NCBI GenBank assembly: GCA_964005815.1
Contig: CAXFSR010000060.1
Location: 1,257-65,256 of the forward strand
Direction of reading: 5' to 3'
DNA: 64,000 nt
DNA from: an uncultured Nitrospinaceae bacterium
GTDB lineage: Bacteria; UBA8248
In this document: piece by piece, positions 1,296 to 42,891 of the stretch
How the letters are laid out: each line of letters opens with the position of its first letter
Numbering within the stretch: position 1 is the stretch's first letter
Program-made: the position numbers and the translations under genes
The notes under the pieces: generated by a model
What the model saw: the letters and a program-made list of their open reading frames with translations, nothing else
The model's database searches: none
Told to the model about the DNA's origin: nothing

Positions 1296-1326
1296 TTTTT
1301 TCTTGAATTAAATATAAGAGAATTTC

Positions 1327-2136: not shown

Positions 2137-2156
2137 CAACTCGAGAGATCATTACT

Positions 2157-4061: not shown

Positions 4062-4066
4062 ACCAA

Positions 4067-5989: not shown

Positions 5990-6149
5990 TTCCGTTACCT
6001 CTCAAATTAAAATCAAAAAAAAATAACAATTAGTATGATTCTAAACAACTTAAAAAAAGATTCAATAGTTAATGAAACATAATTCTTATTTCTATATCCT
6101 TTTATAATTTGTTATTCATAAGTAGAATACATTTAGGAAAAATAACATT

Positions 6150-6989: not shown

Positions 6990-6998
6990 AAAAAATTT

Positions 6999-7835: not shown

Positions 7836-7840
7836 TTTCT

Positions 7841-8530: not shown

Positions 8531-8531
8531 T

Positions 8532-9713: not shown

Positions 9714-9772
9714 AATATTGAATTTTCTGGCAGAGAAAACGGACTTCTTTAAATCAATTTTAAAGTAAAAAA

Positions 9773-9848
<76 letters not shown>

Positions 9849-9898
9849 ACACAAAAACTTTTCTAAATCATCAAAAAAGATTTGTATTCAAGAAAATA

Positions 9899-9927
9899 AT
9901 TCTAGGTGCATCAAAAAATAGCGTCAA
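9899..9927 (-). promoter_or_regulatory. putative sigma70-type promoter for tRNA-Phe
   Basis: On the minus strand: TTGACG (complement of 9922-9927), a 17-nt spacer, then TAGAAT (complement of 9899-9904). This lies about 45 nt upstream of the tRNA 5' end. Confidence 0.35.
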
Positions 9928-10039
9928 GCGCAGTCAAAATTAAAGTATTTAAAAATTAACATTGCAAATAATACTTGTTTCAATCAAATTATGAAATTAG
10001 TTTCGTGCAAAATATTTAACCATAAGAAAGAGGAATTTT

Positions 10040-11050
10040 TTGAATAAAGAAATACTACCGTTAGGAAAAATAGAACATGATCTATTAAGAGAATTTTTAG
10101 ATGACCTTGAAGGTGACCCTCGTCTAATAGTAGGACCAAAAGTTGGAGAAGATGCTGCTGTAATCGATTTTGGGGATAAATATCTTGTAGCAAAATCAGA
10201 TCCAATTACATTCACGGAAGAAAAAATAGGATGGTATGCAGTTCATATTAATGCCAATGATATCGCTTGTATGGGAGCTGAACCTAAATGGTTTCTCATT
10301 ACTCTTTTAATGCCAGATGGTAAAACTTATAAATCTTCAATAAAAAAAATATTCAAAGATATTAAAAGAGCCTGTAAAGAACTAGGTGTAATCTTATGTG
10401 GTGGTCACACTGAGATAACAAAAGGTTTAGAACGGCCTATTTTGTGTGGCCAGATGCTTGGTGAAGTTAAAAAAAATAATCTCATACAGGGATCTAAATC
10501 TAAGAAAGGTGATTCCATATTAATGACCCAAAAAATTCCTATAGAAGGAACTGCAATTTTAGCAAATCATAAAAATAAAGAATTACTTAATACAATAGAT
10601 AACAAATTACTTAAAAAAGCTCAGAGATTTTTAGAAAAACCTGGAATCAGTGTGGTAAAAGCAGCTATTACCGCAGCAAAAACTGGTCATATACATTCTA
10701 TGCATGATCCTACAGAAGGTGGACTAGCAACAGGAATCCATGAACTTGCTCTTGCTTCAAATTTAGGAGCTTTAGTCAATTACGAATTAATTCCAATGTA
10801 TAAAGAGGGAATGGAAATTTGCAAAACATTCAATCTCGATCCGCTGGGCCTCATTACATCTGGAACTCTACTTATAACTACAAGTGAGGATAATGAAAAA
10901 AAGATTATAAAAAAATTAAAAAAAATAGAGATAGAGACAACTAAAATTGGTAAATTGGTTGATAAAAATCTTGGTGTGAAAATAAAAATAGGAAAAAAGA
11001 CTAGTGATTTACCCATTTTTCAAATGGATGAAATCTCAAAAGTTATTTAA
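10040..11050 (+). CDS. AIR synthase-related protein (PurM superfamily; HypE/ThiL/SelD-like fold)
   Basis: 336 aa. VGEDAAVIDFGDKYLVAKSDP and HINANDIACMGAEP N-domain motifs, plus MHDPTEGGLATG in the C-domain. Lacks both the SelD GCGCK motif and the HypE C-terminal Cys. TTG start with an AAGAGGA RBS. Confidence 0.6.
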   Translation: MNKEILPLGKIEHDLLREFLDDLEGDPRLIVGPKVGEDAAVIDFGDKYLVAKSDPITFTEEKIGWYAVHINANDIACMGAEPKWFLITLLMPDGKTYKSSIKKIFKDIKRACKELGVILCGGHTEITKGLERPILCGQMLGEVKKNNLIQGSKSKKGDSILMTQKIPIEGTAILANHKNKELLNTIDNKLLKKAQRFLEKPGISVVKAAITAAKTGHIHSMHDPTEGGLATGIHELALASNLGALVNYELIPMYKEGMEICKTFNLDPLGLITSGTLLITTSEDNEKKIIKKLKKIEIETTKIGKLVDKNLGVKIKIGKKTSDLPIFQMDEISKVI

Positions 11051-11072
11051 AAATAAGGTATGGAGAAATAAA

Positions 11073-11645
11073 GTGAAAGTTGGTGTATTACTCGATTTTG
11101 ATGGAACTATAACAAAACCTGTTTTTAACTGGCCGGCAATGAAAAGAGAAATGAATCTTACAAATGCAGATTTATCTATTCTCGATTATATCTCAACTGT
11201 AGATCCTGAAGACGCTGCAAAGATAGAAGCAATTCTCGAACGTTACGAAATAGAAGCCGCTCTTAAAGCTGAATTAAACGAAGGCGCTAAAGATTTAATT
11301 AATTTTTTAAGAGAAAAAAAAATCCCACATGCGATTGTTACTAATAATGCAAAAAGACATATTCTTAAAATGTTGGAAATTTTAGATCTTAGTTTTGAGA
11401 AAATAATAACCAGAGATATTGGATTTTGGAAACCAGATCCAAGGCAAGTTGTTGCGGGTGCACAGATAATTCAAACACCGCCAGATCGATGTCTTTTTAT
11501 AGGCGATGGACAATACGACATGCATGCAGCAACTGAAGCAGGGATGATTGCAATACATCTTTCAAAATCTAAAACACTTGAGTGTGACTATCAAATTACA
11601 AGCCTTAACGACGCAATCCCAATAATTTCTAGTTTTTATAAATAA
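11073..11645 (+). CDS. HAD-superfamily hydrolase
   Basis: DxDGT motif (VLLDFDGTIT). Likely GTG start at 11073 preceded by a GGAG RBS. The tracked ORF begins earlier, at 11004. Confidence 0.7.
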   Translation: MKVGVLLDFDGTITKPVFNWPAMKREMNLTNADLSILDYISTVDPEDAAKIEAILERYEIEAALKAELNEGAKDLINFLREKKIPHAIVTNNAKRHILKMLEILDLSFEKIITRDIGFWKPDPRQVVAGAQIIQTPPDRCLFIGDGQYDMHAATEAGMIAIHLSKSKTLECDYQITSLNDAIPIISSFYK

Positions 11646-11654
11646 ATTTTAGAT

Positions 11655-13160
11655 TTAAAATAAACTTGAAGCGGAAAGTTTTGTGATATCAATAAAACTA
11701 TCTGGGAAAAGACCAAGATAAAGGGTCATAGACAATAGAATGACCAAAGTAAAGATTAATGAGGAAGCACGGGAGAATTCAAAAGGAATGTCTGGGTCCT
11801 TTGCAGGTTCCATAAACATCACCATAATAACTCGTCCATAATAATACATAGAAATCGCACTTGTAAGTATCCCGATAACAGCCAACCAATAGAATTCATT
11901 TTGTATTGCCGCTGCGAAGAGATATAACTTTCCTACAAAACCTGCAGTTGGAGGTATCCCAGCCAATGAAAGAAGAAAAACCACGAAACACATACCGAAC
12001 CAAGGATGGGACTGACCTAATCCACGCCAATCTTCAATCTGATCTCCTCTTTTGCCTTCTTGGCACATCCATATCAGCATTCCAAAAGCACCTAAATTTG
12101 TAAACAAATATATACCTAAATAAAACAGTACTGAACTTACATTAAAATCACTAAAAAGATATTTCCCATTATGAATTGTGAAACATGAAACAAAACCCAT
12201 CAAAATATAACCGGCATGACTCATACTTGAATACGCAAGCATACGTTTTAGATTCTTCTGTGCAATTGCAGCAATATTACCCCAAACCATTGTCGCAGCA
12301 GTTAAAGCCCAAAAGAGAACAGTCCATCTTGTACTCATAGAAGGCAAGGCTATGACAAAAAGTCGGACTATAACTGCCACAGCTGCTGCCTTCACTGCAA
12401 CAGACATAAATGCAGTTACAGATGTTGGAGCGCCTGTATATGCATCTGGTAGCCACATATGAAAAGGAGCTAGCGCCATTTTAAAAGCAAAACCGCCAAC
12501 TAATAATATAACTGACAAAATTAAAACTGGCTGAGATACTACTGCATTTACATTAGAACTAGAAAGAGCCTTAGCGATAGCAGTAAATGATGTTGAACCG
12601 GTGTAGCCGTAGAGTAATGCGATACCATACAACAAAATTCCAGACGCAAAAGCACCCATCAAAAAATATTTAAATCCTGCTTCTCTACTTAATACATCAT
12701 TTCTCATAAATGCAACTAAAACATAAATACTTATACTCATAGTTTCTATACCAAGATATAGAGTCATTAGATCATTAGCTGAAACTAAAACTAGCATCCC
12801 AAAAACGGAAAACAAAAGCATGGCATAAAATTCACCATAATTAATTTTTTCAACTTTCAGATAATCAATCGACATTAAAACTGTAAGAGCAGCACAAACT
12901 AAAATAGTAGATTTTAAGAAAACACTAAAATTATCAACTATATAAAAATCACTAAAGGTAGTTTTTGGCCCAACACCCCACTGAGATAAAGTAAAATAAA
13001 GGACTATAATTATTCCAATTAAACTAACTAAACCAACTAGAGATTTCTTCTCTAATGAAACAAATAGATCAAAAATAAGAACAAATCCTATAAGAATAGC
13101 AAGACTAATCTCAGGCAAGGCCAGTGAAAATAATATGTCTGGTATAACTACTTGCTGCAT
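11655..13160 (-). CDS. nuoN: NADH-quinone oxidoreductase subunit N (copy 1)
   Basis: 501 aa polytopic antiporter-like subunit with NuoN-type motifs. Last gene of the downstream nuo operon. Confidence 0.9.
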   Translation of the reverse strand: MQQVVIPDILFSLALPEISLAILIGFVLIFDLFVSLEKKSLVGLVSLIGIIIVLYFTLSQWGVGPKTTFSDFYIVDNFSVFLKSTILVCAALTVLMSIDYLKVEKINYGEFYAMLLFSVFGMLVLVSANDLMTLYLGIETMSISIYVLVAFMRNDVLSREAGFKYFLMGAFASGILLYGIALLYGYTGSTSFTAIAKALSSSNVNAVVSQPVLILSVILLVGGFAFKMALAPFHMWLPDAYTGAPTSVTAFMSVAVKAAAVAVIVRLFVIALPSMSTRWTVLFWALTAATMVWGNIAAIAQKNLKRMLAYSSMSHAGYILMGFVSCFTIHNGKYLFSDFNVSSVLFYLGIYLFTNLGAFGMLIWMCQEGKRGDQIEDWRGLGQSHPWFGMCFVVFLLSLAGIPPTAGFVGKLYLFAAAIQNEFYWLAVIGILTSAISMYYYGRVIMVMFMEPAKDPDIPFEFSRASSLIFTLVILLSMTLYLGLFPDSFIDITKLSASSLF

Positions 13161-13189
13161 GATATTTAAGACTCCTATGGACTAAAATC

Positions 13190-14749
13190 TTAGTTTTTAG
13201 CAGAAACCTTTGAAATACGTTTTTGGATAATTGCAACGTTTTTACTCGTTTGATTCTGATCCACAATTTTCACAACTCTTTTAAGACTAGCCTCCATTTT
13301 ATTTATAAAAGGTTTAGGATAGAGACCAATCCAAAACATTAAAATAACTAAAGGAGCTAGATAAAGAATCTCTCTTAAATTACAATCTGGGATATTTTCA
13401 TTTTTTGGATTTTCCAATTTCCCAAAAAATACTCTTTGAAATAACCAAAGCATATAAGCAGCACCAAGAACAATTCCAATCACAGCAAATGCCGCGTAAA
13501 TATAACTTTTCTTAAATGCACCAATAAGGATTAAAAACTCACCTACAAATCCATTTAACCCAGGTAGCCCTATACTACTTAACATAGTTATTGCAAAAAT
13601 TACGGTAAAAATTGGCATTTGCTTTGAGAGTCCGCCATATTCGGAAATTTCGCGTGTATGTCTTCTTTCATAAACAACTCCGACAAGTAAAAAGAGTGCG
13701 CCGGTACTAATACCATGATTTATCATTTGTAATTGACCACCTATTAGCCCCTGTTCATTTAACGCAAAAACTCCCAGCATAACAAATCCTAGATGACTGA
13801 CTGATGAGTAAGCTACAAGCTTTTTAATGTCAGTTTGAGCCATCGCGACCAATGCTCCATATATAATTCCGATGATAGACAGAAGTACCATAAAAGGCAC
13901 AAAAAGTTGCGTCGCCTCTGGAAGAAGAGGCAATACAAATCGAACAAAACCATATGTACCCATTTTCAATAGAATTCCAGCAAGAATTACACTACCGGCA
14001 GTCGGTGCCTCTACGTGCGCGTCAGGCAACCATGTATGAAAAGGAAACATTGGAACTTTGATAGCAAAACCAATGAAAAAGGCAAGGAAAATCCATACCT
14101 GTAAACTTAGTGGAATCTTTGGTCCCACAAGATACAATTCGGTTAGACTAAAAGTTAAAGAACCGGTTCCTGACTTCATATTAAAGAAATATAAAGCAAG
14201 GATTCCTAGAAGCATTAAAACACTTCCGAAAAGCGTATAAAGAAAGAATTTTATTGCAGCATAGAGTTTTCTGGTTCCACCCCAAATACCAATCAAGAAA
14301 TACATCGGTACTAATGTAACTTCGAAGAAAACGTAAAACAGAAAGATATCAATTGCTAGAAATGTTCCAAGCATACCTGTTCCTAGCAAAAGCAAACAAA
14401 CATAATATTCTTTTTCACGTTCTTTAATAGCAGTAAAAGAACAAACAATAGAAATTAACATTGTTAACGTTGTTAGAAGAATCAAAAGTACACTAATCCC
14501 ATCTACTCCAAGATAATAACTGACACCAATTGATGGTATCCAGCTGACTTTTTCAACAAATTGAAATCCTGCCTCAGAGTCATTGAAGTTCGTCCATAAA
14601 GGAAGAGATATAAGAAAATCGAGAAATGCAACACCAGTAGCAAACATCTTGATTGTTTTCACTTGCTCTTTTTTTATAAAGAGCATAATAATAATTGCTC
14701 CCAGCAAAGGAAGAAAAATTATCAGCGAAAGAAGTGGAAGATTATTCAT
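13190..14749 (-). CDS. nuoM: NADH-quinone oxidoreductase subunit M (copy 1)
   Basis: 519 aa. WLPDAHVEAPTAGSVILAG motif typical of NuoM. Confidence 0.9.
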   Translation of the reverse strand: MNNLPLLSLIIFLPLLGAIIIMLFIKKEQVKTIKMFATGVAFLDFLISLPLWTNFNDSEAGFQFVEKVSWIPSIGVSYYLGVDGISVLLILLTTLTMLISIVCSFTAIKEREKEYYVCLLLLGTGMLGTFLAIDIFLFYVFFEVTLVPMYFLIGIWGGTRKLYAAIKFFLYTLFGSVLMLLGILALYFFNMKSGTGSLTFSLTELYLVGPKIPLSLQVWIFLAFFIGFAIKVPMFPFHTWLPDAHVEAPTAGSVILAGILLKMGTYGFVRFVLPLLPEATQLFVPFMVLLSIIGIIYGALVAMAQTDIKKLVAYSSVSHLGFVMLGVFALNEQGLIGGQLQMINHGISTGALFLLVGVVYERRHTREISEYGGLSKQMPIFTVIFAITMLSSIGLPGLNGFVGEFLILIGAFKKSYIYAAFAVIGIVLGAAYMLWLFQRVFFGKLENPKNENIPDCNLREILYLAPLVILMFWIGLYPKPFINKMEASLKRVVKIVDQNQTSKNVAIIQKRISKVSAKN

Positions 14750-14773
14750 AATATCTTAGACCCCCAAAACCTA

Positions 14774-16831
14774 CTATTGTAAAAGATAAGCACTTAACAT
14801 TAAGAAAACACCTAAAAGCATTGCAAGCAAATAATTCTGAACCATTCCAGATTGTAAAAATTTAAAAACTTGACTAAAGAAACGAACAAAGTTCGCTACA
14901 CCGTTCACTGCACCATCAACTGTCCTTATATCAAAAAGGGAAGACACTCGACTCGTTAAAACCGTTACAAATGTACTTCCATTTACAGCACCATCAACAA
15001 CTTTAGCATCAAAATTCCACAAAAAACGCATCAATCTATAAATTGGCTCTACAATACATTTTTGATATAACTCGTCTACATAATACTTATTCAGTAAAAT
15101 TTTATATAAACCTGGGAACTTTTGTTGTATTTGATCAGGCATGTTTGATTTTTTCCCATACATACTCCAAGCAATCACAATACCTCCAACAGCTATTATT
15201 ATAGCAAGTATAATTAAGTACATAGCTTCTGGTCCATGATGACCTCCGCTTTCTCCAGAAGCCGCATGAGCGGAAGAAATCAAATTAAAAGAAGAATGAT
15301 GAGTCACATGAGACATTTTAGCGAGAGAAGGAGCTAGAAAATCATGAATCCACCCTTTTTCTGGTGGAAACCCGGGAATAATTCCTCCAAAAATACTCAA
15401 AACTGCAAGTAAAATCAATGGTATTGTCATTGCGGGGGGAGATTCATGAATATGTTCCCTAGCATGAGTGTCTACTCTCATTTCTCCATGAAAAGTCATA
15501 AAAATCAGCCTAAACATATAAAAAGCAGTCATTAATGCTGCTATAGAACCAACTATCCATACAAAAGTATGTCCAGAGAAAAAAGCATTAGCCAAAATTT
15601 CATCTTTACTCCAAAATCCTGCAAAAGGCGGAACGCCTGCTATTGCTATCGCACCGATTAGAAAAGTCCAATATGTTATTGGCATCTTAGATTTAAGACC
15701 ACCCATATATCTCATGTCTTGCTGTTGCTCTTCGGGAGCATGATGTAAAGCATGAATTACACTTCCACTTCCAAGAAACAAAAGACCTTTAAAAAATGCA
15801 TGAGTCATAAGATGGAAAACACCTGCAGTAAATGCCCCAACCCCAAGCGCCATAAACATAAAACCTAATTGACTAACAGTACTATAAGCAAGCACACGTT
15901 TAATATCATTTTGCACGAGACCTATAGATGCTGCAAAAATTGCTGTAAGTGCTCCTACAACAGCAATAACTTCTAAAGCCAAAGCTGCATCAACATATAT
16001 AGGACTGGTTCTCGCAACCATATAAACGCCAGCCGTTACCATTGTAGCCGCATGAATTAGAGCACTAACGGGAGTAGGTCCTTCCATAGCATCAGGCAGC
16101 CAAACATAGAGAGGGATTTGAGCACTTTTTCCCATCGCACCAATAAAAAGCAGAAGTCCAATAATAGAAGCATAAGTAGTTTCAACACCAAGAACATTGA
16201 TATTTACGGCAAATTTCGATGTTGATTGCGACACTTCTTGGTAAGTGAGAGTATCTGCTAACATCCATATCAAAAACATTCCTAGTAAAAATCCAGCGTC
16301 TCCAATTCTGTTTACAATAAAGGCTTTTTTCCCTGCATCAGAAGCAGATTTTTTTTCATACCAAAAACCAATAAGCAAATAACTACATAAACCAACACCT
16401 TCCCATCCAACAAACATTACCAAATAGTTATCGCCAAGTACGAGGAGAAACATAGAAAGCATGAATAAATTGAGATATGTGAAAAATCTAGAGAATCCGG
16501 GATCCCCATGCATATATCCAATTGAATAAAGATGAACCAAAAATCCAACTCCAGAAACAACTAAAAGCATAATTGTACTTAATGGATCTATAAGAAAACT
16601 TAGCGAAACACTAAAACTTCCTGCGTGAATCCATTCCCAGAGATGAACGGTATGTTTTCCACCAGCACCAAAAATCATTTCATTCGCAATGAAAATTACA
16701 ACCAACAGAGACAATCCTGCCATTAAAGTTGCTATATAACCGGATTTCTCCCCTAATCGTTTTCCAAAAATTCCATTAATTAGAACACCTACAACAGGGA
16801 AAAAAGGAATTAACCATGCATTTAAAATCAT
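14774..16831 (-). CDS. nuoL: NADH-quinone oxidoreductase subunit L (copy 1)
   Basis: 685 aa. WLPDAMEGPTPVSALIHAATMVTAG motif and the long C-terminal horizontal helix region. Confidence 0.9.
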   Translation of the reverse strand: MILNAWLIPFFPVVGVLINGIFGKRLGEKSGYIATLMAGLSLLVVIFIANEMIFGAGGKHTVHLWEWIHAGSFSVSLSFLIDPLSTIMLLVVSGVGFLVHLYSIGYMHGDPGFSRFFTYLNLFMLSMFLLVLGDNYLVMFVGWEGVGLCSYLLIGFWYEKKSASDAGKKAFIVNRIGDAGFLLGMFLIWMLADTLTYQEVSQSTSKFAVNINVLGVETTYASIIGLLLFIGAMGKSAQIPLYVWLPDAMEGPTPVSALIHAATMVTAGVYMVARTSPIYVDAALALEVIAVVGALTAIFAASIGLVQNDIKRVLAYSTVSQLGFMFMALGVGAFTAGVFHLMTHAFFKGLLFLGSGSVIHALHHAPEEQQQDMRYMGGLKSKMPITYWTFLIGAIAIAGVPPFAGFWSKDEILANAFFSGHTFVWIVGSIAALMTAFYMFRLIFMTFHGEMRVDTHAREHIHESPPAMTIPLILLAVLSIFGGIIPGFPPEKGWIHDFLAPSLAKMSHVTHHSSFNLISSAHAASGESGGHHGPEAMYLIILAIIIAVGGIVIAWSMYGKKSNMPDQIQQKFPGLYKILLNKYYVDELYQKCIVEPIYRLMRFLWNFDAKVVDGAVNGSTFVTVLTSRVSSLFDIRTVDGAVNGVANFVRFFSQVFKFLQSGMVQNYLLAMLLGVFLMLSAYLLQ

Positions 16832-18672: not shown

Positions 18673-19815
18673 TTATCTATCACATTCCCCAAGTACGATA
18701 TCTATGCTTCCAATAACGGCAACAACATCTGCAAGTAGACCTCCAACACACAATTTTTTTAGAGCAGCTAAATTTATAAATGACGGGGGTCTAATACGCA
18801 CACGATATGGTGTTTCTGTACCATCGCTAACTATATAGAATCCGAATTCTCCTTTAGGGTTTTCAATACTATGATATATTTCACCCTCTGGAGGCTTAAT
18901 TGTTCTTGGTGTTTTACAGCTCACAGGTCCATCAGGTAATTGCTCTAAACACTGCTGTATGATTTTCACACTTTGCCTTAATTCTTCAATCCTAACGATA
19001 TACCTGTCATAAATATCTCCATTTTCGCCAGTAGGAACTACAAAATCTAAGTATGGATAGGCCGCATATGGTTTAGCCCTTCTCAAATCATAATTTACTC
19101 CACTTGCTCTCAAGAGAGGACCAGACAAACCAAAATCAACTGCATCTTCACCTGAAATAACTCCCACTCCACGAGTACGTTGAAGCCAAATACGATTATT
19201 AGTCAAAAGTGTTTCATAATCTTGAATTCGACTGGGGAAAATATCGATAAACTCTTGTGCTAATGTCAAAAACTTTGCTGGAACATCTTGCTCCAATCCG
19301 CCTAAACGGAATGCATTCACAGTTAAACGACCACCAAACGCTGTTTCAAATAAATCAAGTACCATCTCCCTTTCTCTAAAGCACCATAGAAAAACTGTCA
19401 TTGCTCCAATATCAAGAGCATGAGTAGCTAACCATAACAAATGACTAGCAATACGAGAAAATTCACCAACCATAGAACGTATATAGTTGGCTCGCATAGG
19501 AATTTCCCAATCGAAAAATTTTTCAACTGCAGTTACCCATGCCAAATTATTAGAAGGAGCAGCTATATAATCCAAGCGGTCGGTATAAGGTATAAACATG
19601 GAATAGGTTATATTTTCACCTATTTTTTCGGTACCTCTATGCAGGTATCCAATATCACAATCAAGATCTGTCACTGTTTCACCATCTAGATGAAGAATCA
19701 CACGAAGTACACCATGTGTACTAGGATGCTGGGGTCCCATATTTACTACAAGTTCCTCAGCTCCAGTAACAGTCTTTGTTTGAATTTCTGAATTTGTTTC
19801 TTCTATTTCATACAA
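18673..19815 (-). CDS. nuoD: NADH-quinone oxidoreductase subunit D (copy 1)
   Basis: 380 aa. MGPQHPSTHGVLR motif at the N-terminus. Confidence 0.9.
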   Translation of the reverse strand: MYEIEETNSEIQTKTVTGAEELVVNMGPQHPSTHGVLRVILHLDGETVTDLDCDIGYLHRGTEKIGENITYSMFIPYTDRLDYIAAPSNNLAWVTAVEKFFDWEIPMRANYIRSMVGEFSRIASHLLWLATHALDIGAMTVFLWCFREREMVLDLFETAFGGRLTVNAFRLGGLEQDVPAKFLTLAQEFIDIFPSRIQDYETLLTNNRIWLQRTRGVGVISGEDAVDFGLSGPLLRASGVNYDLRRAKPYAAYPYLDFVVPTGENGDIYDRYIVRIEELRQSVKIIQQCLEQLPDGPVSCKTPRTIKPPEGEIYHSIENPKGEFGFYIVSDGTETPYRVRIRPPSFINLAALKKLCVGGLLADVVAVIGSIDIVLGECDR

Positions 19816-20457: not shown

Positions 20458-20955
20458 TTATTTGCGAATAAATTTCTCTTGTTCAATTTTTTTCTGTAAC
20501 TGCATTACTCCCCACATAAGAGATTCCGGTCTGGGAGGACATCCAGGAATGTAAACATCAACGGGAATAATCTCATCTACCCCTTGCATTACTGCATAAT
20601 TTGGATAAGGTCCACCACAAGTTGCGCAATTTCCCATAGCTATAACCCATCTTGGTTCAGGCATTTGATCATAAACTTTTCTAATTGCACTTCCCATTTT
20701 ATGAGTGACTGTTCCAGCAACTATAATTACATCTGATTGTCTTGGGGTAGCACGAAAAATTACTCCAAATCTATCAAAATCATACCTTGCCGCACCTGAA
20801 GCCATCATTTCAATCGCACAACAAGCAAGACCAAATGTCATCGGCCATAAAGCACTTTTCCTAGCCCAAGCAACAAGACTATCTACCTTGGAAGTAATAA
20901 AATTGTCGTTAAATTTTCCTTCTACTACGCCCATTCCAGAGCTCCTTTTTTCCAA
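20458..20955 (-). CDS. nuoB: NADH-quinone oxidoreductase subunit B (copy 1)
   Basis: 165 aa. Cluster-N2 cysteines present ([20 protein letters not shown]). Confidence 0.9.
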
Positions 20956-21335
20956 GCATAAAAGTATCCTACTAATAAAACTAAAATGAATAACATCATT
21001 TCGACAAAACCAAATAAACCTAAAGCATCATACTTAACTGCCCAAGGGAAAAGAAAAAGAGCTTCTACATCAAATAATAAAAACAAAATCCCTAATAGAT
21101 AGAAGCGTACAGAGAACCTTTCATTCGCCTCCATTAATGGAGGAGAACCACATTCATATGCTGATAATTTCTCTGGATCTGGATTATTGGGTCTAATTAA
21201 TAGAGCAATTAATAATGTTATGCCTGCAAACGCAAAAGCGAACATTACAAAAATAAAAATAGGCAAATAACCATTAATGAGTTGATAATCTCTAAAAAAC
21301 ACACTTAGAAATTCTGGCACAACAAAATCTTCCAA
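20925..21335 (-). CDS. nuoA: NADH-quinone oxidoreductase subunit A (copy 1)
   Basis: 136 aa. YECG motif, 3 TM helices. Overlaps the nuoB start. Confidence 0.85.
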
Positions 21336-35140: not shown

Positions 35141-35638
35141 TTAATTCTTAACAAGACCTTCTGCCTCAATTTTCTTTTGAAGTTTCAAAATCCCGTCTAT
35201 GAGTGTCTCCGGCCTAGGAGGACAACCAGGCACATAAATATCAACAGGCACTACCTCATCCACTCCCTGAACAAGGGCATAATTATTAAAAACACCTCCT
35301 GTTGAAGCACAAGCCCCCATTGAAATGACCCATTTTGGTTCTGGCATTTGATCATAAATCTGTCTTAAAACTGGCGCCATCTTTTTTGACACTCTGCCCG
35401 CAACAATCATTAAGTCAGCTTGTCTAGGAGAAGCACGAAAAACCTCGGCTCCAAATCGAGAAATGTCATATTTCGAAGCAGAAGTAGACATCATTTCTAT
35501 AGCACAACACGCGAGACCAAATAGTGCAGGCCACAGACTGTTTTTTCTAGCCCATTTTATTGCATCAGATATCCTACCTAGAACAACACTACCTTCCAAT
35601 TTTTCTTCTAATCCCAATCTAAAGCCCCTCTTTTCCAC
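35141..35638 (-). CDS. nuoB: NADH-quinone oxidoreductase subunit B (copy 2)
   Basis: 165 aa. [15 protein letters not shown] and PGCPP N2-cluster motifs. Confidence 0.9.
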
Positions 35639-35964
35639 TCATAAATTAAGCTTGCAAAAAGTAAAAAAACAAAAGGCATCACTGCCACAAAACCAAAAAC
35701 CCCAAGACTTTTCAAATTAACAGCCCATGGATATAAAAAAATTATTTCAACATCAAAGACAATAAAGAGAATTGCTACCAAAAAGAATTGTATTGAAAAA
35801 CGTCCTCGTGCACTCGTTTCTGGTATAATTCCGCATTCATAAGCTACATTCTTTTTGTTTGAAGGAGTTCTCTTCCCAAACAAAAAAGTTATACAAATAT
35901 TTAAAAAAGCAAAACAAGTTGCTAATCCAATCATCATGAAAATAGGGAGAAAATCTTGAGACAA
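35608..35964 (-). CDS. nuoA: NADH-quinone oxidoreductase subunit A (copy 2)
   Basis: 118 aa. YECG motif. First gene of the array. Confidence 0.85.
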
Positions 35965-36065: not shown

Positions 36066-36935
36066 TTAACCTAACAGAATTAAAATCACAAGCCCTGATA
36101 TAATTATTGACCCACCAAAAAAAACTTCCCAAAAACGTTCCCTTTCTTTAAAAAAAACATATCCAATGAATATAGCAAGCAAAACTTCTGTCTGCCTAAC
36201 TGATTCTACATATGATGCAAAAGTCATTTGATATGCTTCTGCGAGAATCAAGCTATTAAGAGCAGCAAAAAAACCTAACGCTAAAAAATCTTTCCAAGAA
36301 GAAGAGATTTTTGATAAACCTGATGTTGATTTATAAAACGCTATTGGTAACGTAAAGACAAATGCAGCCGTATACGTACCAAATGTTCCCATAGGTCCAC
36401 TTGAAGAAGCTGCCGCCCATTTAAAGGTTAGCGCTGAAGGTGCAAACATGATTGATGAAATTAAAGCATATCTCATCCCTTTGTCTTTAAAAAGTATTCT
36501 TAATGGCTCCCAAAATGATATTTTTGACCTAGAAACATTAAGAAAATAAACTCCCAAAAGAGTAATTAAAATACCAATGACACCAAAAAAAGTAGGAGTA
36601 TCGTCAGCAGTAAAATATTCAAGCAACATCAGCCATACAATTGAAATCTTCCAAAGTGCTGTTACAGCACCAATGCTTCCGTATAATAGCGCTTTCGATA
36701 GTGCAAGTGTGGCAACAGTTTGTGACACTGCAAAAATACTACAAGCAATATAAAAATCGGTATGGATTTTAGGAATACCAGTCAAAAAGAGGACTACTCC
36801 TGCAAATGGCAATGTCATAAAAAATCGACCTAAAACATTTATATATTCATCTAGATTATGTCCAATCGATTTCATAGATACGTTTCTTAACACTTGAGCC
36901 ATTGCAGAAACAAGAGATAAGGCGATCCAGTCCAA
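36066..36935 (-). CDS. DMT-superfamily (EamA-like) membrane transporter
   Basis: 289 aa, about 10 predicted TM helices arranged as two repeated halves. No specific motif beyond the fold. Confidence 0.5.
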   Translation of the reverse strand: MDWIALSLVSAMAQVLRNVSMKSIGHNLDEYINVLGRFFMTLPFAGVVLFLTGIPKIHTDFYIACSIFAVSQTVATLALSKALLYGSIGAVTALWKISIVWLMLLEYFTADDTPTFFGVIGILITLLGVYFLNVSRSKISFWEPLRILFKDKGMRYALISSIMFAPSALTFKWAAASSSGPMGTFGTYTAAFVFTLPIAFYKSTSGLSKISSSWKDFLALGFFAALNSLILAEAYQMTFASYVESVRQTEVLLAIFIGYVFFKERERFWEVFFGGSIIISGLVILILLG

Positions 36936-37087
36936 AAGAAACTCCTACACAACAATTATTTATAGTGAAAACGAAAAGATTATACCTAGAATTTCAAAAA
37001 AGTGTTTCTTCTTTCTCTTAAAAATTAACTTTGAGTTCAAGCCCACTATGTTATACGATCAATAAAAATCTAATCTGGAGAGTAACA

Positions 37088-38107
37088 ATGATAGAGAAAG
37101 ACGTATTCATTTTCGATAACGTTGTCCACATGTACGATTATTCCGACGAAAATTTAAAATCAAAAGAGAGCGATTTTGATAGACAATATCATTTAAATAA
37201 AGTTCTTGGTCGAAGACAAAAATCAGCAAATGATATTTACTCTTCTTGGGACCCCATTAAAGGGTTTGCTAGAAAATGGACTTCTGAAGACCTAGGAAAA
37301 TTGCTTTTTGAGGATTCTGGAACAGATATGGCAATGGCTCAAGCAGTTCCTTTATTCGACCTATATAAAGACGGTTTTGCTCCCGTGAAAGCACAATATG
37401 AATTTTCAAAAACCTATCCAGAAAGAGTTTTATTTTGCGGTGCAGTTGATCCTATGTACCCAAGTTTAGAGGGAGCACTAGAACAAATGGAAGAACAGGT
37501 CAAAGTAATGGGCGCAAAATCAATTAAAATATACAATGCACATGTAGATGGAAAATCTTGGGCATGTGATGATCCTGAAATTGCCTATCCTCTCTACGAA
37601 AAAGGTCTTGAACTTGGAATGAAAATTTTTCAGTTCCATAAAGGCAATCCAATTACTAGAGCAAGTTTAAGGGATCTTTCCCCACTAGATATTGAAAGAG
37701 CTGCTATGGATTTCCCAGATTTGTCTTTTGGAATACATCATCTAGCCGTCCCATATTTTGAAGAAACCGTTTGGATTGCCTCTAGATACCCAAATGTTTT
37801 CTTAGTTCTTTCAGGGATAGGACATACTCCTATGGTCGCACCTAGAACTTTCAAAGAGTGGATAGGAAGGCTACTAAGGGACGTAGGTTCTGATCGAATT
37901 CTCTGGGGATCAGAAGCACCACTCCTTGGAAATCCAAGACCTATCCTAGAATGGATATGGAACATGAAAATTGACGAACAACTTCAAGAGGATTACGGTT
38001 ATCCAGAAATTACAGAAGAAGACAAAAGAAAAATCTTAGCAGAGAACCAGGCAAGATTATTTAATATAAATCTAGAATCTAAGAAAAAAGAATTTTTCAA
38101 TAAATAA
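37088..38107 (+). CDS. amidohydrolase-2 family (TIM-barrel metal-dependent hydrolase/decarboxylase-like) protein
   Basis: C-terminal DRILWGSEAP ... ILAENQARLF signature of PF04909-type enzymes. ATG at 37088 with a GGAG RBS 7 nt upstream. The tracked ORF starts at TTG 37031. Confidence 0.65.
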   Translation: MIEKDVFIFDNVVHMYDYSDENLKSKESDFDRQYHLNKVLGRRQKSANDIYSSWDPIKGFARKWTSEDLGKLLFEDSGTDMAMAQAVPLFDLYKDGFAPVKAQYEFSKTYPERVLFCGAVDPMYPSLEGALEQMEEQVKVMGAKSIKIYNAHVDGKSWACDDPEIAYPLYEKGLELGMKIFQFHKGNPITRASLRDLSPLDIERAAMDFPDLSFGIHHLAVPYFEETVWIASRYPNVFLVLSGIGHTPMVAPRTFKEWIGRLLRDVGSDRILWGSEAPLLGNPRPILEWIWNMKIDEQLQEDYGYPEITEEDKRKILAENQARLFNINLESKKKEFFNK

Positions 38108-38124
38108 AATGGTGCGATTTCCCT

Positions 38125-38433
38125 ATGCAAGAACATGAACTAGAAAAAGATATTAACAACCTCATAGAAACACAAATCAAACCACTTCTAAAAATACATG
38201 GAGGTGGTATACGCTTTATTAAAATAACCGAAGATAAAACAGTTCAACTTGCCTTTGAGGGAGCTTGTCTTGGATGTCCTTTGAAGAGTGTTACCTATGC
38301 ACTCGGTGTAAGACAAAGATTATTACAACATCCAGAAATTCACGAAGTAGAAATTGAAGGGGTACGTTTATCTAGAGCTGCATTGAATAGAGTAGAAAAA
38401 ACTTTTTCTGGCTATTCCTTTTGGGAAAACTAA
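38125..38433 (+). CDS. NifU-like (Nfu-type) domain protein
   Basis: 102 aa. KIHGGGIRFIKI...LAFEGACLGCP CxxC scaffold motif of the NifU C-terminal domain. Confidence 0.7.
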   Translation: MQEHELEKDINNLIETQIKPLLKIHGGGIRFIKITEDKTVQLAFEGACLGCPLKSVTYALGVRQRLLQHPEIHEVEIEGVRLSRAALNRVEKTFSGYSFWEN

Positions 38434-38458
38434 AAATACTCCTATCAGGGAATAATAA

Positions 38459-39721
38459 TTGAACCTACAATCATCAAAAAACCAAAAAAAGATATGGTAT
38501 GGATGGATCGTACTTTCAATTGTTTATTTTGTAATGCTCTCCCTCATAGGAACACGTTCAAGCTTTGGTTTTTTCTTTAAACAAATTTCAAACGAATTTT
38601 CGTGGTCACGCGCTGAAACTGCCGCTGCATTTTCAATTGGCATGTTTGCACAATCAGTCTGCTCACTTTTTTCTGGATGGATTTCTGATAGATTAAGCAT
38701 CCGTTTAACAATGTCTGCAGGCATTGCTATTTTCGGATTTTCTGTATTATTAGGAAGTCAAATAAATAGTCTTGCTTTTTTTTATCTGACTTACGTTCTT
38801 ATGAATATTGGATTTGCATCCAGTACTTGGGTTGCACAAGTCCCAACTCTTTCTAACTGGTTTGTTACTAAAAGGGGACTTGCTCTAGGAATATCTAGTT
38901 CCGCTCAAGGTACAGCATTTATTTTAAATTTTTTTACTCCAATTCTTATACTTACTCTTGGCTGGAGAATGAGTTACGTTTTTTTTTCTATTTTGATTCT
39001 GTTCATAACACTTCCTCTCGCTGCAATATTTCATCGTGACCATCCCGATCAAAAAAATACAGTTGCCGATCAGCCCTTTTTAGATTCAGAGAATATCCCT
39101 ACAAAAAAAGAAAAATCTTTTCCAAAAAAAATTCTTAATGATCCTGTCAATTTCTTTTCATTTCGTTTTTTCCTTTTTTTAGTTTTATTTCTCCCAATTG
39201 CTTATGTTTTTACTGTTCTTCTAGTTCACTTTCCTGCTCATTTGACAGACCAAGGGATAACGGATCTTTCTTCTGCAGGAATTTTTGCAATCTGGGGGGC
39301 ATCTTTAATTGTCGGATATTTGATCAGTTCAATTTCAGATTATTACGGAAGAACTTCTACATTTTCAACAGGTAGTTTGCTCGGTGTACTTTCAATGTTT
39401 TTAATAGGGAAATACAATATTTCTTTTGAACCATGGGTAATTTATGTGCTCACTATGACAAATGGAATCGCTCTCGGTCTTATACGTTCAACTGCATCAG
39501 CAATAATGGCAGACCATTTTTCAGGTGAAAAATTTGGCAAAACAAATGGTATCGCAATGTGTCTTTTTGCCATTTTTGGCGGATTTGGTGCATGGTTCAC
39601 CGGATTTCTTTACGATTTACACTTGAATTACTACTGGGGATTTTCTATCGCTTCACTAATGTTTATGATATCCGGGGTTTCCGCATTAATTTTATCTACA
39701 CAAGAGAAAAAAACTAATTAA
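38459..39721 (+). CDS. MFS transporter
   Basis: 420 aa, 12 TM helices with a central loop. The 3' end overlaps the convergent NHase-like alpha gene by 4 nt. Confidence 0.7.
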   Translation: MNLQSSKNQKKIWYGWIVLSIVYFVMLSLIGTRSSFGFFFKQISNEFSWSRAETAAAFSIGMFAQSVCSLFSGWISDRLSIRLTMSAGIAIFGFSVLLGSQINSLAFFYLTYVLMNIGFASSTWVAQVPTLSNWFVTKRGLALGISSSAQGTAFILNFFTPILILTLGWRMSYVFFSILILFITLPLAAIFHRDHPDQKNTVADQPFLDSENIPTKKEKSFPKKILNDPVNFFSFRFFLFLVLFLPIAYVFTVLLVHFPAHLTDQGITDLSSAGIFAIWGASLIVGYLISSISDYYGRTSTFSTGSLLGVLSMFLIGKYNISFEPWVIYVLTMTNGIALGLIRSTASAIMADHFSGEKFGKTNGIAMCLFAIFGGFGAWFTGFLYDLHLNYYWGFSIASLMFMISGVSALILSTQEKKTN

Positions 39722-40470
39722 TCGAACGCTACCTTTTCATACTCTTCCGGTGTCAATGCATCTGCAACCCCAATCATAGAATCACGAGTAACGAGCCTAG
39801 CCAATGCCTCTTCTCCCAATTCTTCTGTTCCGGCAGGGCGACGAGGTATTACAAGATATCGACAATCAGCATTACTATCTATGACAATCAATTCAATATC
39901 TTCTGGAGGAGTGTAACCCAAATCAAGCAAGGCACCTCTAGGATCCGTAACTGCTTTTGACCGGTATGGGAAACTTTTATACCAGGTAGGAGGTTGTCCA
40001 AGAAGTACTCTTGGATAACAAGAACACAAAGTACAAACAACCATGTAATGCACACTGTCAGTATTTTCAAGAACTATCAATTTATTAACACTGCTTGCTT
40101 CTATATCTATTTCCATTTCTCCACATGCAGAATGTGCATCAGAAAGAAGACGTTCTTTAAATTCATCGTCAACCCAGGCTCGAGCAACTACCCTAGCACC
40201 AGTAGTTGGAGTTTGAGCATATATTTCCTCCACCGTACGTCGCATTTCATCAGTAGTTACTATTCCCTTCTCTCTCAAAAGATTCAATATTCCAACAACA
40301 CGCACCTGAAAATAATCTAGATCATGTTCTACAGGAACAACCTTATCTTCCATGTAAGCTTCATCGGACTTCATTCGAGCATTATGCGATGACAAATCAT
40401 GACTATATGGACTTTCATTGTCATGAGGGTGATTATGGTGATGGCCACTTCCATGGTGGTTATCTGACAT
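39718..40470 (-). CDS. nitrile hydratase alpha / thiocyanate hydrolase gamma-family metal-binding subunit with His-rich N-terminal tail
   Basis: 250 aa. The active-site claw VCTLCSCYP and downstream LGQPPTWYKSFPYRSKAV, LVIPRRPAGTEEL and LVTRDSMIGV are collinear with NHase alpha. There is an extra N-terminal tail MSDNHHGSGHHHNHPHDNE. AAGGAG RBS. Local GC is clearly higher than in flanking DNA. Confidence 0.8.
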   Translation of the reverse strand: MSDNHHGSGHHHNHPHDNESPYSHDLSSHNARMKSDEAYMEDKVVPVEHDLDYFQVRVVGILNLLREKGIVTTDEMRRTVEEIYAQTPTTGARVVARAWVDDEFKERLLSDAHSACGEMEIDIEASSVNKLIVLENTDSVHYMVVCTLCSCYPRVLLGQPPTWYKSFPYRSKAVTDPRGALLDLGYTPPEDIELIVIDSNADCRYLVIPRRPAGTEELGEEALARLVTRDSMIGVADALTPEEYEKVAFD

Positions 40471-40490
40471 TTATTTTCTCCTTAAAGAAA

Positions 40491-40772
40491 CTACAATGCT
40501 TCAATCCAATGATCGTAAATTTCAATGTTCAACTTATCTTTCTTCTCTCCTGGGTTATGTTCCCAAAGATCATTTAAATTAAACTGAACCCAATATAAGT
40601 CCTGAAACGGCTTTCCGTCTCCACCATAAGCAAGGATTTCGGGGTTCTCGTAACTTCCGAAATAACGAATAATCTTCCCAGATTTACCTTTCACATATTC
40701 AGTTGTTCTGTGATGACCTTCGAAATAAGTGTTCTTTATTCGAACCTCTTCACCAATCTCAAATTTTGACAC
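40491..40772 (-). CDS. nitrile hydratase beta-subunit C-terminal-domain homologue (SCNase alpha-like), stand-alone 93 aa
   Basis: EGHHRTTEYVKGKSGKI ... YWVQFNLNDLWE matches the beta C-terminal barrel (the GH.R.P.Y.RGK.G.I...Y.V.F...LW pattern). No N-terminal beta domain is encoded anywhere nearby. GTG start with a weak RBS. Confidence 0.65.
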   Translation of the reverse strand: MSKFEIGEEVRIKNTYFEGHHRTTEYVKGKSGKIIRYFGSYENPEILAYGGDGKPFQDLYWVQFNLNDLWEHNPGEKKDKLNIEIYDHWIEAL

Positions 40773-40846
40773 TTTTACCCCACAAATTTAATTAAAAAAG
40801 AAATTTAAAATCAGTACAAAAAGAGTACCGAAAGACAAATCTATTT

Positions 40847-41869
40847 TCAAGTAATTTGAAATAGCTTTCGTACATTCTCAACCAAAATCTCATTCTGCTG
40901 TTTCTCTTCCAACTTGCTCATTCCAGGAATTTCGCGACAATTTTCATGGTTAGCCATGTCAGCTGGATAATCGGTACCATACACGACTCTTTCGGAACCC
41001 AAAGTTTTTACGGCAAATTCAAAGGAATCAGCATTATGAATTATCGTATCGTAAAAAAATCTATTAATATATTCTTCTGGGTTCTTAGAACCATGTACTT
41101 TTGGCTCTCTTCTTTCCCCATAACCATGTTCCCAACGTCCACGAATCCAGGGAAGAAAACCACCTAGATGAGAAAGCAAGAAATTAAGATTTGGGAAACG
41201 ATCCAAAACCCCTCCAAAAATCAAACATGCAGCAGCTATAGTTGTATCAAGAGGATTTCCAATGAAATTGCGTAAATAAAAATCCTTGAGTCTATCTGCA
41301 GCACCCATTGTATCAATTGGATGGATAAAAATAGTAATACCTAAATCTTGCGCTTTTTGCCAAAAAACATCGAGATCAGGATCGTCCAAATTTTTTCCTG
41401 CAACATTCGAGGCAATCTGTACACCAAGATGCCCGTTGTTTATTGCACGTTCTAATTCTTCTGCTGCTAATTCAGGATCTTGTAGAGGAACTGTCGCCAT
41501 ACAGGAAAAATTAGAAGGGTTATCGTTTGAAATTCTAATTAGTGCGTCGTTCATAGATTGAGCAAGATCATGTGTAATCGACTTATCAAGAGAATAAAAA
41601 GTAAGTGACGGAGAAACAGATAGAATTTGTCTACTAACTCCCATACGCTTCATATCTTCTAAACGCAAATCAACTTCATAATACATAGGAGTCAGAATAT
41701 TTCTTAATTCCCTACTTTTCCCAAGAACATTACTCTTCGTAACTATCCATTCCTTACCATCCGCATTTTGAACGGTTACAGTATCTCCAAAAGCCTTGTT
41801 TCTAACGTCTTCTAAAAAACCTAAAGGAACAATATGCGTATGAGGATCAATAACCATCTTAAACTCCAA
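40847..41869 (-). CDS. amidohydrolase-2 family protein (ACMSD/LigW-like)
   Basis: 340 aa. IDPHTHI metal-binding HxH, SHLGGF, and YGTDYPADM ... NVRKLFQI C-terminal signature. Confidence 0.75.
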   Translation of the reverse strand: MEFKMVIDPHTHIVPLGFLEDVRNKAFGDTVTVQNADGKEWIVTKSNVLGKSRELRNILTPMYYEVDLRLEDMKRMGVSRQILSVSPSLTFYSLDKSITHDLAQSMNDALIRISNDNPSNFSCMATVPLQDPELAAEELERAINNGHLGVQIASNVAGKNLDDPDLDVFWQKAQDLGITIFIHPIDTMGAADRLKDFYLRNFIGNPLDTTIAAACLIFGGVLDRFPNLNFLLSHLGGFLPWIRGRWEHGYGERREPKVHGSKNPEEYINRFFYDTIIHNADSFEFAVKTLGSERVVYGTDYPADMANHENCREIPGMSKLEEKQQNEILVENVRKLFQIT

Positions 41870-41883
41870 AGTCTAAAAAGAAA

Positions 41884-42891
41884 TTATATTTTATAAAGTT
41901 CCTTTACATTTCCACACAAGATTTTATCCTGATCTTCATCTGACAATCTTGAAAGGCCAGGAATGTCCTTTGCAGCACCTAAATATCCCATATCAAACGG
42001 GTAATCAGTCCCATATAAAATACGTTCTGACCCTAAAGTGTTTACGGCAAATTCAAAAGAATCGGCATTATGAATTATTGTGTCATAATAAAAATTGTTA
42101 ATATATTGCTCAGGATTTTTTGCACCATGAACCTTCGGCTCACGTCTTTCTCCATACCCGTGTTCCCAACGACCACGAATCCAAGGAGTAAAACCACCTG
42201 TATGGGAAACTAAAAATTTAATTTTTGGGAACCTGTCAAAAACACCACCAAAAATTAAACACGCCATGGAAATTGTAGTATCTAAAGGATTACCAATAAA
42301 ATTGCGAAGATAGTAATCTTTAAGACGATCATTTACACCCATAACATCTGAAGGATGAATAAAAACAGGGACGTCTAATTCGCAAGCCTTTGCCCACACA
42401 ACATCAAGACTAGGATCGTCAAGGTTTGTTCCTGCAACGTTTGATGCTATCTGGCAACCTTTATGTCCATTCTTTACGGCACGATCTAATTCAGTAGCCG
42501 CCGCATCTGGATCTTGCAGCGGAATCTGAGCCATGCAATGAAACTGTTCTGGATATGTCTTGGTCAATTCAGTTAAGGCATCATTTAAGGATGAAGAAAT
42601 TTCTTTATTCAACCCAGCATCTAAAGCGTAAAATGTCATGGGAGGAACCACCGATAAAACCTGCATATCGACTCCCATATTCTTCATATCAGAGAGTCTA
42701 AGATCAACGTCATAAGTTGTTTTTGGTAGAGGATTTTTATGAACTCTTTCCTGTCCCAAAACCGTATTCTTGGTTGTTAGAAATTCCCAGTCTTCTCCTG
42801 GTTCAATAATTACAGAATCACCAAAACTACCTTTTCTTACATCTTCGATAAAACTAGGCGGTGCTATATGGGCATGAGGGTCAATTATCAC
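41884..42891 (-). CDS. amidohydrolase-2 family protein (paralogue of 40847-41869)
   Basis: 335 aa. IDPHAHI, SHTGGF, YGTDYPFDM. Clearly alignable along its full length with the downstream neighbour. Confidence 0.75.
   Translation of the reverse strand: MIIDPHAHIAPPSFIEDVRKGSFGDSVIIEPGEDWEFLTTKNTVLGQERVHKNPLPKTTYDVDLRLSDMKNMGVDMQVLSVVPPMTFYALDAGLNKEISSSLNDALTELTKTYPEQFHCMAQIPLQDPDAAATELDRAVKNGHKGCQIASNVAGTNLDDPSLDVVWAKACELDVPVFIHPSDVMGVNDRLKDYYLRNFIGNPLDTTISMACLIFGGVFDRFPKIKFLVSHTGGFTPWIRGRWEHGYGERREPKVHGAKNPEQYINNFYYDTIIHNADSFEFAVNTLGSERILYGTDYPFDMGYLGAAKDIPGLSRLSDEDQDKILCGNVKELYKI

Follow-up and report, generated by a model that had tools for sequence, protein, structure and literature searches.

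Can an enzyme of the nitrile hydratase (NHase) family be maintained with an alpha subunit and only one half of a beta subunit? This question is raised by a 64,000-nt stretch of DNA from an uncultured Nitrospinaceae bacterium, contig CAXFSR010000060.1 (hereafter the window; positions given without a locus number are window positions). NHase is a textbook industrial metalloenzyme. Most of its substrate pocket is believed to be formed by the N-terminal half of the beta subunit (beta-N), which is also credited with one of the two arginines tuning the oxidised cysteine ligands. A first-pass annotation of the window, made from the sequence alone, had noticed a minus-strand operon for two Amidohydro_2 paralogues (AH2a and AH2b), a 93-aa protein and a 250-aa protein, and all four open reading frames (ORFs) were confirmed in this study, with the coordinates and the Pfam assignments in agreement. 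We lean towards the view that this operon, conserved in Nitrospinota, encodes a Co-type NHase-family pair of an alpha subunit (alpha') and the C-terminal half of beta (beta-C), which would be a descendant of the split-beta enzymes (gene order betaN, betaC, alpha) minus beta-N and would work without beta-N.

The alpha' and beta-C subunits

The 250-aa protein, alpha' (39718-40470, minus strand), was assigned to NHase_alpha by Pfam (PF02979, E 4.5e-71), and its closest matches in PDB were Co-type NHase alpha subunits (E 2.5e-58), the Co-type entries (E 1e-58 to 1e-46) being ranked before the Fe-type entries (1e-39). The Co-type signature reads V-C-T-L-C-S-C-Y with its Thr and Tyr, while the Fe-type carries Ser and Thr. 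The metal claw of alpha', VCTLCSCYP (residues 145-153; 40012-40038, minus strand), carries the Co-type signature, and together with the PDB ranking it places alpha' in the Co-type, in good agreement with the first-pass reading of this protein. Among 58 aligned alphas, C146, T147, L148, C149, S150, C151, Y152 and P153 are invariant, and the claw as well as all the family-invariant alpha residues are intact in alpha'. The AlphaFold2 (AF2) model of alpha' shows a confident NHase alpha core (pLDDT 82), for which Foldseek returned the Co-type alpha 3QZ5_A with a TM score of 0.89 (normalised to target). The profile searches that had been proposed at first pass gave 223.5 bits for the NHase alpha equivalog TIGR01323 (cut-off 249.85) and 173.5 bits for TIGR03887, the gamma equivalog of thiocyanate hydrolase (SCNase; cut-off 291.45), indicating that alpha' stays under both cut-offs but is nearer to NHase than to SCNase.

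The 93-aa protein, beta-C (40491-40772, minus strand, GTG start), matches NHase_beta_C alone (PF02211, E 6.9e-19, profile positions 11-97 of 98). Against the 226-position beta model of NCBIfam its alignment spans positions 137-224. It scores 63.1 bits with TIGR03888 (NHase beta), under the cut-off of 152.2, and corresponds in the PDB alignment to beta residues ~129-217 of 3QXE_B, with an additional alignment to the SCNase alpha subunit. The proposal that it is only the C-terminal, SH3-like half of an NHase beta subunit was thus borne out. Its GHHR motif (40707-40718, minus strand), including Arg22, was aligned to GHTR of the Pseudomonas putida beta subunit 3QXE_B, and GHxR is invariant across the clade and the split-type beta-C sequences. 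We take Arg22 to be the C-half beta arginine that forms hydrogen bonds with the oxidised Cys ligands (betaArg141/157 in the reference enzymes), and by this alignment beta-C appears to retain the C-half arginine of the canonical holoenzyme, a point that had been raised at first pass.

A word-index search for homologues of the 93-aa protein gave 3 matches only, and an exhaustive search of representatives was used instead, which yielded 560 representative clusters; among the top 150 clusters, 123 were stand-alone proteins (at most 135 aa) and 7 were of full-beta length. Natural betaC::alpha fusions without a beta-N domain were also found, the claw being intact in P0130 and P0199 and degenerate in P0156. 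Since the alpha parts of these fusions fall in yet other split-type lineages, beta-C plus alpha appears to be a recurrent unit. P0156 (310 aa), carrying VSSLGGSYP instead of VCTLCSCYP, is probably a non-catalytic pseudo-enzyme.

The block AH2a-AH2b-betaC-alpha, with beta-C of 93-95 aa and alpha of 232-255 aa, was found in constant order and orientation in about 15 independent Nitrospinota contigs or metagenome-assembled genomes (MAGs), the alpha identity across the block-bearing loci (L001-L004, L006-L009, L013-L015, L017, L018 and L104) being 62-96%. The nearest loci in GTDB belong to uncultured Nitrospinaceae/Nitrospinota MAGs (alpha identity 96%, 95% and 85%), and the distant L104 lies on a 2.93-Mb contig (ERZ25072258 ctg8069, island 6971-16514) with an alpha that is 68% identical to that of the window. 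AH2a is present in every clade locus, with AH2b always right behind, and the 93-95-aa beta-C gene stands directly upstream of alpha in nearly all of them and is in frame in all. The dN/dS ratio was 0.03-0.2 for beta-C (dS ~0.7) and 0.04-0.25 for alpha (unsaturated distances), and both NHase genes are under purifying selection. Within this range the alpha value between the window and L014 (0.20, against 0.06 between the window and L013) is inflated because a masked run of N breaks the 3' end of the alpha gene in the GTDB record of L014 (~2598-2700).

These values bear on the alternative that the 93-aa ORF, as already considered in the first-pass annotation, or even both NHase genes together, are functionless, decaying remnants. 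The GTG start of beta-C and the loss of half a subunit could be taken as signs of decay, but since dN/dS is low and the block is conserved, the remnant reading is hardly tenable and is effectively refuted by the selection analysis. In addition, ribosome-binding sites are present (GGGG, 6 nt before the GTG start of beta-C; AAGGAG, 8 nt upstream of alpha'), and beta-C keeps its length of ~93-95 aa in all clade loci save for a single in-frame insertion in L015. In this Nitrospinota MAG (betaC at 9573-9911 of the locus), the insertion of ~23 aa is rich in Lys/Glu, precedes the last strand and leaves the flanking conserved motifs intact.

The missing N-terminal half of beta

A beta-N hidden Markov model (HMM) was built locally from full-length and fused beta proteins, and was run on six-frame translations of the window and of the clade loci, for which the flanks extended up to 10 kb per side (some contigs gave ~2 kb only). 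Neither a beta-N nor an activator ORF was detected in the window or in any clade locus, in agreement with the first-pass observation that the beta N-terminal half is absent from the locus. The unannotated neighbours (146 aa in L012, 160 aa in L001, 198 and 137 aa in L004, 86 aa in L007 and 152 aa in L006), checked by Pfam at E up to 10 and with the local HMM, gave no beta-N signal. At the position of the beta-N gene in the split-beta relatives, the window has only a spacer between AH2b and beta-C (40773-40846, minus strand), which is as short and as free of beta-N as had been described, except that it measures 74 nt and not 75 nt; the gap between beta-C and alpha' is 20 nt. The spacer holds a weak hairpin and a T-run (40831-40811), a terminator-like match at the level of chance (4 found against 4.6 expected in the consensus scan), and both promoter and terminator consensus matches in the window were no better than chance.

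As a control set, 80 further metagenome NHase loci were scanned with the same beta-N HMM. A beta-N domain was located within ~1 kb of alpha in 67 control loci with enough flank (metagenome/GTDB survey), and three further loci (P0036, P0117 and P0057) brought the total to 70. Most control loci had separate betaN, betaC and alpha genes in that order; in some, a full beta followed alpha, and others were arranged as betaC, alpha, betaN. The full three-gene form (betaN, betaC, alpha) was found for 55 of the 94 surveyed alphas with near-complete sequence. Among the loci with adequate flank, beta-N was missing only from the Nitrospinota clade and from a Chloroflexota pair, L011/L012, the context of which includes a molybdenum hydroxylase, an M20 peptidase and an NMT1-type binding protein. 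The same HMM detected presumed activator-like second beta-N ORFs in the full-beta loci L047, L083, L091 and L093. The gene order betaC, alpha, betaN is that of a clade formed by L065, L068, L069, L073, L077 and L096, and there the beta-N-like gene that follows alpha could encode a subunit, an activator or a protein serving as both.

In a neighbour-joining tree of the alpha cores (N-terminal helix excluded; low resolution, without support values), the Nitrospinota clade was monophyletic and nested in the split-beta enzymes as sister to the split-type L020-L038, and L011/L012 were placed apart from it. Because of this position within the split-beta (betaN, betaC, alpha) enzymes, beta-N was probably lost from a three-gene ancestor, and this probably happened twice, in Nitrospinota and separately in Chloroflexota. 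Judged from this placement, the window system belongs, in derived form, to the large split-beta family and does not constitute a family of its own. The earlier suggestion of an undescribed two-subunit architecture holds in so far as the arrangement is conserved and selected and no description of an NHase of alpha plus beta-C only, of a Nitrospina NHase or of this operon was found in the searchable literature, but it needs correction in that the enzyme belongs to the split-beta family.

Loss from the operon leaves the alternative that beta-N is supplied in trans, by an orphan gene or a second NHase locus elsewhere, which would complete a normal three-subunit enzyme. The three-subunit enzyme of S. 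canus (ScNHase) requires its beta-N subunit, AnhD, for full activity and maturation (PMC7329996), the region examined comprised the 64-kb window and up to 10 kb of flank per locus, and split subunits are not always adjacent. An example of the latter is the split-beta NHase of L010 (1809-5615), in which betaN/betaC lie 3 kb from alpha with two Ala_racemase_N/D-Ser-dehydratase-like genes between; NHase subunit genes need not be contiguous. On the other hand, no beta-N was found in the window or in the ~15 clade loci, and the betaC::alpha fusions without beta-N suggest that the pair can be a unit. Furthermore, beta-C stays beside alpha across 62-96% alpha identity and beta-N never does. Because of this long retention of beta-C by alpha and the adjacency of beta-N to alpha in the 70 other loci, we consider its supply in trans fairly unlikely.

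The gap might also be filled within the alpha chain itself, if the extended N-terminus, an arm (VEHDLDYFQVR) followed by a helix (GxxTTDEMRR), replaced beta-N including its DExR arginine. The arm, VPVEHDLDYFQVR in the window (40300-40338, minus strand, ahead of helix 1), is invariant within the Nitrospinota clade, and the beta-N HMM matched the alpha N-terminus of the beta-N-less clades with 25-43 bits (HMM positions 7-60), the aligned beta-N segment being the first hairpin, which carries the DExR arginine. A sub-HMM of this first hairpin gave 30-54 bits for the beta-N-less alphas, whereas 67 partnered alphas had a median of 8.4 and did not exceed 29. After a prospective test, however, the proposal of a grafted first hairpin was rejected and the resemblance was attributed to paralogy: the three high-scoring alphas P0036, P0117 and P0057 (39-41 bits) all have betaN+betaC directly upstream, and therefore the resemblance of arm and hairpin is not a marker of beta-N loss. 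Moreover, T.DE(V/M)RR.VE is the majority consensus throughout the alpha subfamily, irrespective of architecture, the window alpha reaches only 32 bits, and the arm is modelled by AF2 with low confidence in isolation. Replacement of beta-N by the alpha N-terminus is thus, in our judgement, very unlikely. The top two scorers, L021 and L078, were also rejected as extra beta-N-less loci. Both are true fusions of betaN, a His-rich linker and alpha (L021 ~6064-6678; L078 ~9941-10585), a mirror image of the window architecture, and no betaC gene was detected near them.

The first 30 residues of alpha' (MSDNHHGSGHHHNHPHDNE; 40381-40470, minus strand) include 9 His, in line with the His-rich tail noted at first pass, and the tail is predicted to be disordered (AF2, residues 1-49, with pLDDT <50 for residues 1-23). 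The idea that this tail replaces the activator was not supported by the comparison with other alphas, for at least 4 His within the 35 residues before helix 1 were found in 63% of the split-beta, 45% of the full-beta and 100% of the beta-N-less alphas. The His-rich tail is thus widespread in the family, being common also where alpha is partnered by beta-N, and is not tied to the alpha plus beta-C architecture. Nor is the lack of an activator, to which attention had been drawn, a special feature of this locus, because it is known in characterised three-subunit NHases, where beta-N itself is the chaperone (PMC7329996); the absence that calls for explanation is that of beta-N. The clade-specific parts of alpha in the alignment are the arm, TTDEMRR in helix 1 and a C-terminal tail, AL(T/S)PEE(Y/F)E. 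This tail (ALTPEEYEKVAFD in the window; 39721-39759, minus strand) is confined to the alphas of the Nitrospinota clade and is predicted to form a helix (residues 241-249, pLDDT ~85, AF2).

Partner enzymes, neighbouring genes and a proposed route

The first gene of the operon is AH2a (335 aa; 41884-42891, minus strand; PF04909, E 2.6e-32), followed by its paralogue AH2b (340 aa; 40847-41869, minus strand; PF04909, E 3.6e-28), and the two Amidohydro_2 proteins are 62% identical. The best PDB relatives of AH2a are human and bacterial 2-amino-3-carboxymuconate-6-semialdehyde decarboxylase (ACMSD, a metal enzyme; E 1.1e-49), and AH2b matches ACMSD at ~1e-44. More distant relatives of the two proteins within the family include further non-oxidative decarboxylases as well as hydratases. 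The alignment with ACMSD is full-length, and the HxH...H...H...D metal/catalytic motifs of the ACMSD-type Amidohydro_2 decarboxylases are present in both proteins, HP.D, SH.GG and GTDYP being kept (AH2b) and an N-terminal DPHAH motif being carried by AH2a. No NCBIfam equivalog matched AH2a or AH2b, many of their relatives are labelled aminocarboxymuconate-semialdehyde decarboxylase by JGI, and relatives also occur without any NHase (L103). Taken together, AH2a and AH2b have the appearance of decarboxylases or hydratases, not of amidases; of the two roles that had been offered for them, decarboxylation is better supported, while amide hydrolysis is not.

Convergent with alpha' is a plus-strand unit (37031-39721) of three genes, which is kept in the window subclade and in L104. 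Its MFS transporter gene (38459-39721, plus strand; PF07690, E 2.5e-39) overlaps the 3' end of alpha' with its own 3' end by 4 nt, and one or two MFS genes on the opposite strand stand just past alpha in nearly all clade loci. The second gene encodes a NifU-like protein of 102 aa with an Nfu C-terminal domain and CxxC (38125-38433, plus strand; PF01106, E 8.5e-16), kept in the window subclade (L013-L015) and in L104, and is a candidate metal-handling partner. The third, AH2c (358 aa; 37031-38107, plus strand), is a divergent Amidohydro_2 protein (PF04909, E 6.4e-30; weak PDB match), which is kept in L013-L015, L004 and L104. An EamA-family transporter gene (36066-36935, minus strand; PF00892, E 6.3e-16) borders the island, as it does in most clade loci. 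The island of L104 also holds phosphodiesterase/sulfatase-like and GRDB-family genes between alpha and the MFS genes. Within the 64-kb window neither an amidase, a cobalt transporter nor a second NHase was found, and Rfam elements, riboswitches included, were absent.

Elsewhere the window reads as unremarkable chromosomal DNA for a bacterium of this kind, with SelA/SelB, chlorite dismutase, SCO1, ScpAB, two nuo operons and tRNA-Phe (9773-9848). SelA, SelB, an AIRS-family SelD-like protein and a chlorite-dismutase-family gene are located at 30-5227, 6150-6989 and 10040-11050; the selenocysteine machinery and the chlorite-dismutase-family gene are consistent with a Nitrospinaceae nitrite oxidiser. 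Both tandem complex I (nuo) sets span 11655-35964 on the minus strand, set one running from nuoA (35608-35964) via a nuoG-like 847-aa protein to ~21428, and the second set including nuoA/B/D-like genes at 20925-21335, 20458-20955 and 18673-19815.

For the operon we propose the following scheme. The 250-aa alpha', with its intact Cys claw, most likely forms a complex with the 93-aa beta-C, which would supply one of the two beta arginines holding the oxidised cysteine ligands. The pair would work without beta-N, and the pocket that is normally walled by beta-N may be open or closed by something else. Cobalt would enter without a chaperone by direct insertion, as observed in vitro for the S. canus alpha, and the disordered His tail may help. 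The neighbouring MFS/EamA transporters could bring in a small nitrile-bearing or similar substrate for hydration at the metal, after which the two ACMSD-like enzymes might process the product, through decarboxylation or hydrolysis, in a route of organic-nitrogen or carbon scavenging. The logic of this route is inferred from the similarity to ACMSD.

The chemistry of alpha'/beta-C could be other than nitrile hydration, with thiocyanate or another heterocumulene, an isonitrile or a bulky substrate accommodated by an adapted open pocket. The failure of alpha' to reach either equivalog cut-off is compatible with this alternative, as are the two ACMSD-like partners in place of an amidase, and the specificity would have to change upon losing the pocket-forming half. 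It is nevertheless unlikely in view of the closeness of alpha' to NHase rather than SCNase, by both sequence and fold, and of its nesting in the split-beta NHases, of which the characterised members hydrate nitriles (PMC7329996).

Several points weigh against an enzyme of alpha' and beta-C that works without beta-N. The beta-N half normally gives the second active-site arginine (betaArg52/56) and aromatic pocket residues; no compensating element was demonstrated, the candidate in the alpha N-terminal arm having failed its test, and the window lacks an amidase and a cobalt transporter. In addition, ScNHase, the only split-beta enzyme for which subcomplexes were assayed, loses ~96% of its activity without beta-N, which is also its metallochaperone (PMC7329996). 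We still favour the working alpha'/beta-C pair. A bolder version, in which a minimal NHase-family enzyme without beta-N and activator offers a half-open site to an unusual, perhaps bulky or charged, substrate and operates with a heteromeric ACMSD-like pair in an undescribed organic-nitrogen/nitrile pathway, is put forward tentatively, as a possibility that we hold with less than even confidence.

Nitrospinota are the dominant marine nitrite oxidisers, and the presence of the operon beside transporters and two decarboxylase-like enzymes hints at uncharacterised organic-nitrogen/carbon scavenging in this group, which is of biogeochemical importance. The retention of alpha plus beta-C under purifying selection without beta-N amounts to a natural deletion experiment: either the minimal catalytic unit of the family is smaller than assumed, or an unrecognised partner fills the gap. 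A smaller catalytic unit, if true, would be useful for the engineering of small or wide-pocket NHases.

Comparison with known systems

By sequence comparison, all the parts of the window system come from known families, and its nearest relatives are known three-subunit NHases. With the canonical Co-type NHases (Pseudonocardia thermophila 1IRE and Pseudomonas putida 3QXE; alpha2beta2 plus activator), alpha' shares the alpha fold and the claw, the TM score to alphas of the 1IRE/3QXE type being 0.84-0.89 (normalised to target) at 43-45% identity, but it carries ~45 extra N-terminal and ~10 extra C-terminal residues, and the window lacks beta residues ~1-125 and the activator. Of the marks of the canonical holoenzyme, a complete beta, scores above the TIGR01323/TIGR03888 cut-offs and a TIGR03889-type activator in the operon are missing here. 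The DExR arginine and the YYxxW/Y pocket residues, located in beta-N by alignment, are likewise missing; PDB holds entries of a bR56K mutant NHase.

The SCNase of Thiobacillus thioparus (alpha/beta/gamma) shares the split beta, its alpha (126 aa) being the counterpart of beta-C (E 5.3e-06) and its gamma that of alpha' (E 1.4e-35). In contrast to the window, SCNase keeps a beta-N-like subunit, and alpha' is closer to the NHase alphas in sequence and fold; neither a gamma equivalog score nor a three-subunit set including a beta-N-like member was found here. With ACMSD, AH2a and AH2b share full-length similarity (E 1e-49 and 1e-44) and metal-ligand motifs, whereas here they are tandem paralogues in an NHase operon, with no kynurenine/nitroaromatic pathway genes nearby. 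The fused NHase of the eukaryote Monosiga brevicollis, as cited in PMC2603476, is a beta-alpha fusion; it has an insert between the subunits and a complete beta, while in the window the genes are separate and beta-N is lacking. The metagenomic fusions found in this study, betaN-betaC-alpha (P0183, P0252), betaN::His-linker::alpha (L021, L078) and betaC::alpha (P0130, P0199), show that NHase-family subunits are readily fused, split and rearranged.

The closest likeness is to the three-subunit Co-type enzymes ScNHase (AnhD/AnhE/AnhA) and ToyJKL, the toyocamycin NHase of S. rimosus, which share with the window the CTLCSC claw, the lack of an activator gene and a separate ~95-aa beta-C directly upstream of alpha. 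The window alpha core nests inside their radiation (in the same tree of low resolution and without support values), where many alphas are also His-rich N-terminally. The difference lies in the third gene, beta-N, which is absent in cis from every clade locus, so that betaC and alpha are adjacent without betaN, and two ACMSD-like genes stand upstream in its place. In ScNHase, AnhD corresponds to beta-N and AnhE to beta-C, AnhD acting as metallochaperone and subunit-swapping chaperone, and under reducing conditions no activator is needed for cobalt to enter alpha (PMC7329996). Holo-AnhEA, the subcomplex of alpha and beta-C, has 0.58 mol Co/mol and 4.17% of the holoenzyme activity, and the alpha subunit of ScNHase alone has no activity (PMC7329996). 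For ToyJ, also an alpha by itself, catalytic competence and full modification were reported by Nelp et al. 2014, as cited in PMC7329996. The window enzyme is, by analogy, the natural counterpart of the AnhEA subcomplex, and the part that it lacks is the very one on which ScNHase depends for most of its activity and for its chaperone.

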